Shown: positions 10,349 through 10,457 of the stretch, one piece after another | Numbering within the stretch: position 1 is the first letter of the stretch | Layout of the letters: each line of letters opens with the position of its first letter | Assembly: GCA_964402565.1 (NCBI GenBank) | Contig: CAYOCJ010000002.1 | Location: forward strand, 79,392-143,391 | Length of the DNA: 64,000 nucleotides | Direction: 5' to 3' | Source: an uncultured Gammaproteobacteria bacterium | Lineage (GTDB): Bacteria; Patescibacteriota; Patescibacteriia; UBA1558; 2-01-FULL-52-15 | Translations under genes and position numbers: made by a program | The notes under the pieces: model-generated | Database searches by the model: none | Seen by the model: only the letters and a program-made list of their open reading frames with translations | Told to the model about the DNA's origin: nothing

Positions 10349-10421
10349 ATAATTATTTTTTATGTTTCCGCTCGTCATCGCGAACGGATCAGCTCACGCG
10401 AATTGCGATGAGCTGACAAGT

Positions 10422-10457
10422 CCCTGCCTGCCGGCAGGCAGGTCTCCATGCCCACCA
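10422..10457 (+). repeat. Perfect 20-bp palindrome followed by a duplicated tRNA-Leu(CAG) 3'-end fragment (GTCTCCATGCCCACCA).
   Basis: CCTGCCTGCCGGCAGGCAGG at 10422-10441, then a copy of the tRNA T-stem/acceptor/CCA end at 10442-10457, about 95 nt downstream of the real tRNA end. Confidence 0.6.

Follow-up and report, generated by a model that had tools for sequence, protein, structure and literature searches.

A palindrome-split tRNA-Leu fragment behind an intact tRNA gene in a Patescibacteria genome: a possible scar of local tRNA-gene turnover

Among palindromic repeats, REP/BIME and MITE-like elements are well known, and Rickettsia palindromic elements insert into genes. Archaea have split tRNA genes, as in Nanoarchaeum, and BHB introns at non-canonical positions. 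In Escherichia coli, 3′ETS-leuZ is a small RNA that derives from a 3′ external transcribed spacer. Fragments of tRNA genes at the borders of integrated elements, the direct repeats of attL and attR, were reportedly described by Reiter in 1989 and Williams in 2002. Such fragments are a recognized kind of tRNA-derived sequence (van der Gulik et al. 2023, PMC9897764), and casposons make target-site duplications of 14–15 bp at tRNA-Leu genes (PMC4779613).

The locus described here lies in a 64-kb stretch of genomic DNA, referred to as the window, directly downstream of an intact tRNA-Leu(CAG) gene (Table 1). As with attL/attR fragments, a partial tRNA copy that includes the 3′ terminus lies downstream of the intact gene in direct orientation and cannot fold as a tRNA. 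Unlike at such borders, the 94 bp between the copies contain no gene, there is no integrase and the fragment is split by a palindromic insert; sister cases reported below also include 5′ fragments and a complete tRNA nested within another.

Table 1 Features of the tRNA-Leu(CAG) locus and tRNA gene fragments beside other tRNA genes
Feature	Sequence	Position	Strand	Basis or remark
Promoter-like site TTGACA-17-AATGAT ahead of tRNA-Ala	window	10143–10171	+	consensus scan, prediction only
tRNA-Ala(GGC), opens the tRNA-Ala/tRNA-Leu unit	window	10183–10258	+	ARAGORN and Rfam
tRNA-Leu(CAG), intact, 3 nt past tRNA-Ala	window	10262–10348	+	ARAGORN and Rfam
15-nt repeat, copy 1	window	10334–10348	+	T-stem 3′ strand, 3′ acceptor strand, discriminator base and CCA
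59-nt spacer, AT-rich at its start	window	10349–10407	+	no significant similarity to tRNA
tRNA-Leu fragment, left part	window	10408–10422	+	tRNA positions 58–72, 11/15 identical
Perfect 20-bp palindrome, arms CCTGCCTGCC and GGCAGGCAGG	window	10423–10442	no strand	between tRNA positions 72 and 73 of the fragment
15-nt repeat, copy 2, exact tRNA 3′ end	window	10443–10457	+	right part of the fragment
Terminator-like hairpin, 11 pairs (10 G-C), then CTTTGGTT tail	window	10493–10525	+	predicted
5′ fragment upstream of tRNA-Lys(CTT) 32888–32963	window	32790–32804 and 32846–32853	+	41-nt double-hairpin insert
Copy of own 3′ end of tRNA-Leu(CAG)	L014/L023 (Kaiserbacteria-like)			exact, 15 nt, 99 nt downstream
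Copy of own 3′ end of tRNA-Pro(CGG)	L007			18 nt, 98 nt downstream
Copy of own 3′ end of tRNA-Ala(TGC)	L033	16382–16395; tRNA 16478–16553	-	13/14, 83 nt downstream
Copy of own 3′ half of tRNA-Cys	L003	about 13640–13850	-	downstream, 59-nt hairpin-rich insert in T loop
5′ copy of tRNA-Cys	L010			21 nt, 100 nt upstream

The preliminary description of this DNA had reported a 16-nt copy of the tRNA 3′ end some 95 nt downstream, directly behind a perfect 20-bp palindrome. The palindrome (CCTGCCTGCCGGCAGGCAGG) is exactly as described, the distance is measured here as 94 nt between the copies, and the repeat is real, but its exact length is 15 nt (TCTCCATGCCCACCA): the sixteenth nucleotide does not match (G10442 versus C10333) because G10442 is part of the palindrome. 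Allowing up to two mismatches, the 16-mer occurs three times in the window against 0.04 occurrences expected by chance. This also covers, for the 64-kb window, the proposed search for the 16-mer elsewhere, in which the one match besides the two copies is the related tRNA-Leu(TAG). The 15-nt repeat has a BLAST E value of about 4e-4 within ±3 kb. In the Logan assembly of a sibling run (L027, SRR12313480) the sequence is identical over 10319–10620; as L027 is an independent assembly, the arrangement is therefore not an assembly artefact. The shortness of the repeat is all that speaks for chance resemblance or an artefact, and given the counts above, the independent assembly and the recurrence of the pattern at other tRNAs, we regard either as extremely improbable. 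The palindrome is unique in the window even at three mismatches. By chance, 64 kb should contain about 0.06 perfect 20-bp palindromes; the window has two, the second of which (TGAGAATATCGATATTCTCA, window 53977–53996) lies inside a pyruvate:ferredoxin oxidoreductase-like open reading frame (ORF; 53780–55525).

Similarity to the tRNA gene continues on the other side of the palindrome. The 15 nt that precede the palindrome (ATGAGCTGACAAGTC) match the 15 nt that precede the first copy (10319–10333, ATGAGAGTTCAAGTC) at 11 positions, for which the per-position chance in the window is about 1e-4. With the palindrome taken out, the copy grows to about 30 nt that correspond to tRNA positions 58–87 (T arm, 3′ acceptor strand and CCA) and are identical at 26 of 30 positions. 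Because of this upstream extension, we read the second copy as a tRNA-gene fragment of about 30 nt that is split by the palindrome, a precise 20-bp insert without target duplication. The four mismatches of the left part form a single block (AGTT to CTGA) that completes the 3′ arm of a hairpin at 10389–10416. Neither ARAGORN nor Rfam calls the second copy, which has no 5′ acceptor strand; being a partial match for which a cloverleaf is impossible, it is a non-canonical tRNA gene fragment in the sense of PMC9897764. Local alignment of the spacer with the rest of tRNA-Leu is not significant (p = 0.17), and the 59-nt spacer recurs neither in the window nor among the loci compared. A full tandem copy of tRNA-Leu was considered and rejected: beyond position 58 the similarity is at chance level, with 26% identity by hand count for an ungapped alignment of positions 1–57.

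Had a short element entered the 3′ end of the tRNA gene through staggered cuts 15 nt apart, as casposons do, the two 15-mers would be a target-site duplication around a miniature element of 94 bp. The length of the repeat (15 nt, and 13–21 nt in the other cases below) fits the 14–15-bp duplications of casposons, which include those at tRNA-Leu genes (PMC4779613), and the pre-insertion sequence that would follow is sensible, consisting of the tRNA, 35 nt and the terminator. The likeness to casposons ends with this direct repeat of about 15 bp at a tRNA-Leu 3′ end: casposons are 8–20 kb long and mostly archaeal, whereas the unit here is 94 bp, without terminal inverted repeats, Cas1 or PolB. Its ends, ATAATTATTT... 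and ...GGCAGGCAGG, do not form an inverted repeat, the window encodes no Cas1, PolB or transposase, and no second copy of the 94-bp insert occurs in the window or the loci compared. Such a duplication would also leave the 11/15 extension upstream of the palindrome unexplained, and we consider it very unlikely.

We looked for the same locus in related genomes. Neither the flanking permease nor a 28-nt tRNA-Leu pattern gave a match in scans of species-representative genomes. Except in the same strain (P0121/L006), the permease has no homologue above 55% identity, and homologues at 50–55% were rejected as orthologous loci, not being syntenic. GlmS places the organism in the Patescibacteria, with a metagenome-assembled genome (MAG) of Candidatus Komeilibacteria as the nearest named match (65% identity). 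The nearest syntenic relative of the window is a contig of this Komeilibacteria-like MAG, L033, and both share the order tRNA-Ala(GGC)...23S–5S...GlmS...tRNA cluster...pseudouridine synthase...tRNA-Arg(TCG)–tRNA-Lys(CTT)...cNMP-binding gene. At the orthologous position in L033 (732–808), tRNA-Ala(GGC) is 82% identical to the gene in the window. At the syntenic locus L033 lacks tRNA-Leu(CAG), and neither the 15-mer nor the palindrome occurs anywhere in its 21.8 kb. This makes the block lineage-specific and excludes a conserved structure for processing or termination, the outcome that the preliminary description, in proposing this comparison, had named as one that would refute its reading. In this presence/absence comparison, the tRNA-Leu gene itself is missing from L033 along with the insert. 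The collections searched hold no close relatives and no empty or intermediate allele of the exact tRNA-Leu(CAG) locus.

Two further comparisons concern sequences beside other tRNA genes. In the related contigs L013/L020 and L021, the tRNA-Leu(CAG) and tRNA-Pro(CGG) genes appear identical by eye and the spacer of about 105–120 nt between them is unrelated, a difference that suggests fast replacement of tRNA-flanking sequence. An empty site for the L014 case was sought through its downstream gene and rejected, as the relative L028 (92% amino-acid identity) has a different upstream region. Within the window, the 23S (11830–14976) and 5S (15226–15343) rRNA genes have no adjacent 16S gene. The 23S gene is about 220 nt longer than the Rfam model, with expansions near E. 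coli positions 220–290 (window 12054–12340) and near position 650 (window 12722–12772).

Similar fragments recur at other tRNA genes. A metagenome scan with the 3′ 24-mer of tRNA-Leu returned 17 loci. Counting cognate 14-mers with at most one mismatch within 300 nt, in the non-redundant cellular Patescibacteria contigs compared, we found fragments near 10 of 48 tRNAs (10 of 96 flanks), compared with 37 of 3,144 (1.2%) for non-cognate controls; the 79 tRNAs of phage-type arrays had no cognate fragments of 13 nt or more. Most gaps between fragment and gene measure 80–110 nt, and none within ±3 kb is on the kilobase scale. The tRNA-Ala(TGC) of L033 shows the same architecture as the focal tRNA-Leu(CAG). 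The tRNA fragments vary widely in which part of the tRNA survives (Table 1). The 5′ copy beside tRNA-Cys in L010 continues as a degenerate copy of the remaining tRNA (p of about 5e-4), making it a degenerate full tandem copy. The tRNA-Cys locus of L003 is also flanked by a perfect 12-nt inverted repeat of leader and trailer.

A second case lies in the window itself, right behind tRNA-Arg(TCG), where positions 1–15 and 16–23 of tRNA-Lys(CTT) both recur exactly and the D loop of the fragment is split by 41 nt made up of two perfect GC-rich hairpins. For the extra 8-mer, about 0.004 chance matches are expected. L033 also has the 23-nt 5′ fragment of tRNA-Lys, uninterrupted. Retro-copying of a mature tRNA was considered as a source of such fragments and rejected, as the repeats in L007 and L014 lack CCA and run into the genomic flank. 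Elsewhere in the window, a tRNA-like 5′ fragment (GGGGGTGATTAGCTC, 28276–28290, minus strand) lies between tRNA-Ala(TGC) and tRNA-Val(CAC), is cognate to neither neighbour and is followed by GC-rich hairpins.

An element of about 88 nt was noticed in the tRNA 3′ trailers of three organisms (window 33016–33101, plus strand; L014 2720–2807; L007 868–955). It consists of GGGAAGGGGTC, a GGGRAAC-GGAA-GTTYCCC hairpin with compensatory changes, and then GGAAATAYTAAAACCG; the alignment supports one hairpin only. In two of the three lineages, L014 and L007, it lies between the tRNA and the copy of the tRNA's own 3′ end. Rfam gives no match to it, and searches of IMG/VR, phages and plasmids did not turn it up. 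A multi-copy element was rejected, as a covariance model found no further copies in 211 kb.

At the focal locus, the whole repeat and palindrome block lies between tRNA-Leu(CAG) and a strong predicted terminator. On account of the promoter-like site and the terminator-like hairpin (Table 1), it is predicted to lie in the 3′ trailer of the tRNA-Ala/tRNA-Leu transcript. In the predicted fold, the spacer contains a weak hairpin (10367–10388) and the 5′ part of the strong hairpin at 10389–10416. Two ORFs over the block (10448–10606 on the plus strand and 10394–10582 on the minus strand) were judged spurious as coding sequence, both crossing the terminator.

This placement raises the possibility of a functional RNA: the trailer of about 145 nt, in which three hairpins and an unpaired copy of the tRNA 3′ end precede a terminator, could be a processed small RNA or a processing or decoy element, its 15-mer kept by selection. 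The fold is much more stable than those of shuffled sequences (z = −5.4, terminator included), prediction has the block transcribed and its 15-mer unpaired between hairpins, and the trailers of L014, L007 and the window share the conserved element just described, in two of the three cases followed by a copy of the 3′ end of the tRNA at that locus. Like 3′ETS-leuZ, the focal block would be a structured RNA that follows the last tRNA of an operon and precedes the terminator; unlike it, the block is not conserved and is absent as a whole from syntenic L033. Moreover, Rfam yields no family even at a cut-off as lax as E ≤ 10, no homologue of the spacer occurs among the sequences compared, the fragment lacks the 5′ acceptor partner that a tRNA-like minihelix would need, and fragments differ widely in the part of the tRNA that they retain. 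A functional trailer RNA strikes us as quite unlikely.

In L033, the resident tRNA-Lys(CTT) gene is cleanly split, with positions 1–23 at 21426–21448 and positions 24–76 at 21623–21675. Compared with tRNA-Lys in the window, both halves are tRNA-perfect, differing by one D-loop substitution and one compensatory T-stem pair swap. Between them lies a 174-nt insert that carries a complete second tRNA-Lys(CTT) whose sequence differs (21501–21577), preceded by a leader and followed by a trailer. The ends of the insert, CCTGCCCGCC (21449–21458) and GGCAGGCGGG (21613–21622), directly abut the tRNA halves without a target duplication, and each is identical at 9 of 10 positions to the corresponding arm of the focal palindrome. 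As in archaeal split or intron-containing tRNA genes, the tRNA is interrupted cleanly in a stem and both halves are tRNA-perfect; unlike in Archaea, this bacterial lineage shows no evidence of a splicing endonuclease, and no tRNA could be spliced from the focal fragment, which has no 5′ half. In L007, an intact tRNA-Leu(CAG) is apparently nested in a degenerate tRNA-Leu-like gene with a 13-nt direct repeat, an arrangement that is suggestive only.

A further relative, L034, has a 40-nt intergenic palindrome (2929–2968) with ends like those of the focal palindrome. With related ends in L033 and L034, the 20-bp palindrome can be classed as a dispersed element, of which the window holds one copy. 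It resembles REP/BIME and MITE-like elements in being a short GC-rich palindrome with conserved ends that occurs in different contexts in the window, L033 and L034 and is tolerated inside other sequences. It differs from them in being single-copy in the 64-kb window, in that the L033 ends bound a 174-nt unit that carries a tRNA, and in that no RAYT/TnpA-type gene was seen; more generally, no candidate for an enzyme that moves inverted-repeat elements was seen in the 64-kb window. At the focal locus the intact tRNA lies outside the inverted-repeat pair, as opposed to the nested arrangement in L033, so that a direct link between the focal fragment and a cassette event of this kind is our inference.

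Taken further, and as a speculation that we ourselves think doubtful, the clade may harbour tiny cassettes that are bounded by CCTGCCYGCC...GGCRGGCAGG, insert precisely into tRNA stems without target-site duplication and in some cases carry a tRNA of the same anticodon that compensates for the destroyed gene. An empty or collapsed cassette of this type, lodged in an old tRNA-Leu copy, would account for the focal palindrome, and the recurrent fragments would be the debris of repeated rounds. The clean case for such cassettes is L033, with one tRNA-Lys gene inside another.

The preliminary description read the repeat as a possible attL/attR footprint of a tRNA-targeting integrase, a decayed or excised element or a recombination scar. 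A tyrosine-integrase element would have entered the T loop or 3′ end of tRNA-Leu(CAG), restored the gene with its own 3′ end and later lost its interior, leaving attL, 94 bp and attR. Several features have this look. The repeat spans the T arm exactly to the CCA end, like integrase identity blocks; imperfect mimics of the T arm, like the sequence to its left (11/15), are common in attP sites; the AT-rich stretch right behind tRNA-Leu resembles an arm; integration is known to produce tRNA gene fragments (PMC9897764); and the tRNA-Leu locus varies between lineages.

The search for integrase genes that had been suggested came back empty: among ORFs of at least 150 amino acids in the 64-kb window, none has an integrase, recombinase or transposase domain. 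The genes of the window are housekeeping genes and many type IV pilin-like genes, and the 94 bp between the copies contain no ORF. Neither of the two predicted attP junctions (palindrome and core; core and ATAATTAT) occurs in IMG/VR; the spacer and these junctions have no viral, phage or plasmid match, and the trailer has no phage match. IMG/VR contigs with the tRNA 3′ pattern were examined as attP sites and proved to be phage tRNA arrays. In the same window, at least seven genes have a type IV pilin N-terminal methylation motif, one of them directly downstream of the tRNA-Leu block, in stretches at 10599–11315, 16469–17674, 18985–19596, 37026–38607 and 50098–51084.

The character of the fragments also weighs against an integrase. 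What splits the focal fragment is a precisely placed palindrome akin to the insert ends of L033, the 5′-end fragments upstream of tRNA-Lys and tRNA-Cys are not products of 3′-targeting integrases, and most independent cases have gaps of 80–110 nt with none on the kilobase scale within ±3 kb, which would be unlikely from random decay of islands. In our view, the duplicated tRNA-Leu 3′ end is probably no attL/attR pair, either of an integrase element that still resides here or of one excised recently, and an old, internally deleted integrase footprint seems unlikely to us. What stands of the earlier reading is a genuine repeat, beyond chance, that is best taken as a recombination scar; beyond the repeat itself, an integrase attL/attR pair found no support.

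The precise palindromic insert, the upstream 5′ fragments and the gaps of 80–110 nt, not expected of decayed integrase islands, fit local turnover of tRNA genes. With moderate confidence, we favour the view that the tRNA-Leu block is a non-functional scar of such turnover, in which a superseded copy has decayed to its last 30 nt or so and carries the paired ends of a clade-specific inverted-repeat element. That the block lacks function, and in what order and by what mechanism the events took place, we infer from the comparisons above. DNA bearing a tRNA would be duplicated or inserted into or beside a resident gene of the same identity in this Patescibacteria clade; one intact copy would keep the function, and the superseded copy would decay to an end fragment. 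A GC-rich inverted-repeat element specific to the clade (CCTGCCYGCC...GGCRGGCAGG) would insert precisely into tRNA stems, and at the tRNA-Leu(CAG) locus only its two ends would remain, or only ends may ever have existed. Apart from contributing co-transcribed hairpins, the block is probably functionless. Several points temper our preference for turnover: local alignment of the spacer finds no trace of the 5′ two-thirds that the supposed old tRNA-Leu copy would have had, the intact tRNA lies outside the inverted-repeat pair, the collections searched contained no empty or intermediate allele, the 64-kb window shows no candidate for a mobilizing enzyme, and a repeat whose right edge falls at CCA and whose left edge falls in the T arm also has the look of an integrase-type identity block.

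In the literature, we found no description of a tRNA fragment split by a precise palindrome with arms that, in a relative, form the ends of an insert carrying a tRNA. Nor did we find such a density of fragments described for Patescibacteria tRNA loci. A duplicated tRNA 3′ end is routinely taken as the mark of an integrated element, a shortcut that would here mis-annotate a genomic island. If the wider pattern holds, the tRNA loci of these streamlined, host-dependent bacteria would be unexpectedly dynamic, with small cassettes replacing tRNA genes in place and a palindromic element targeting tRNA stems. This would bear on tRNA annotation, in which fragments have to be told from genes, and on the complete tRNA sets of minimal genomes, and the cassettes may possibly represent a new class of very small mobile DNA.
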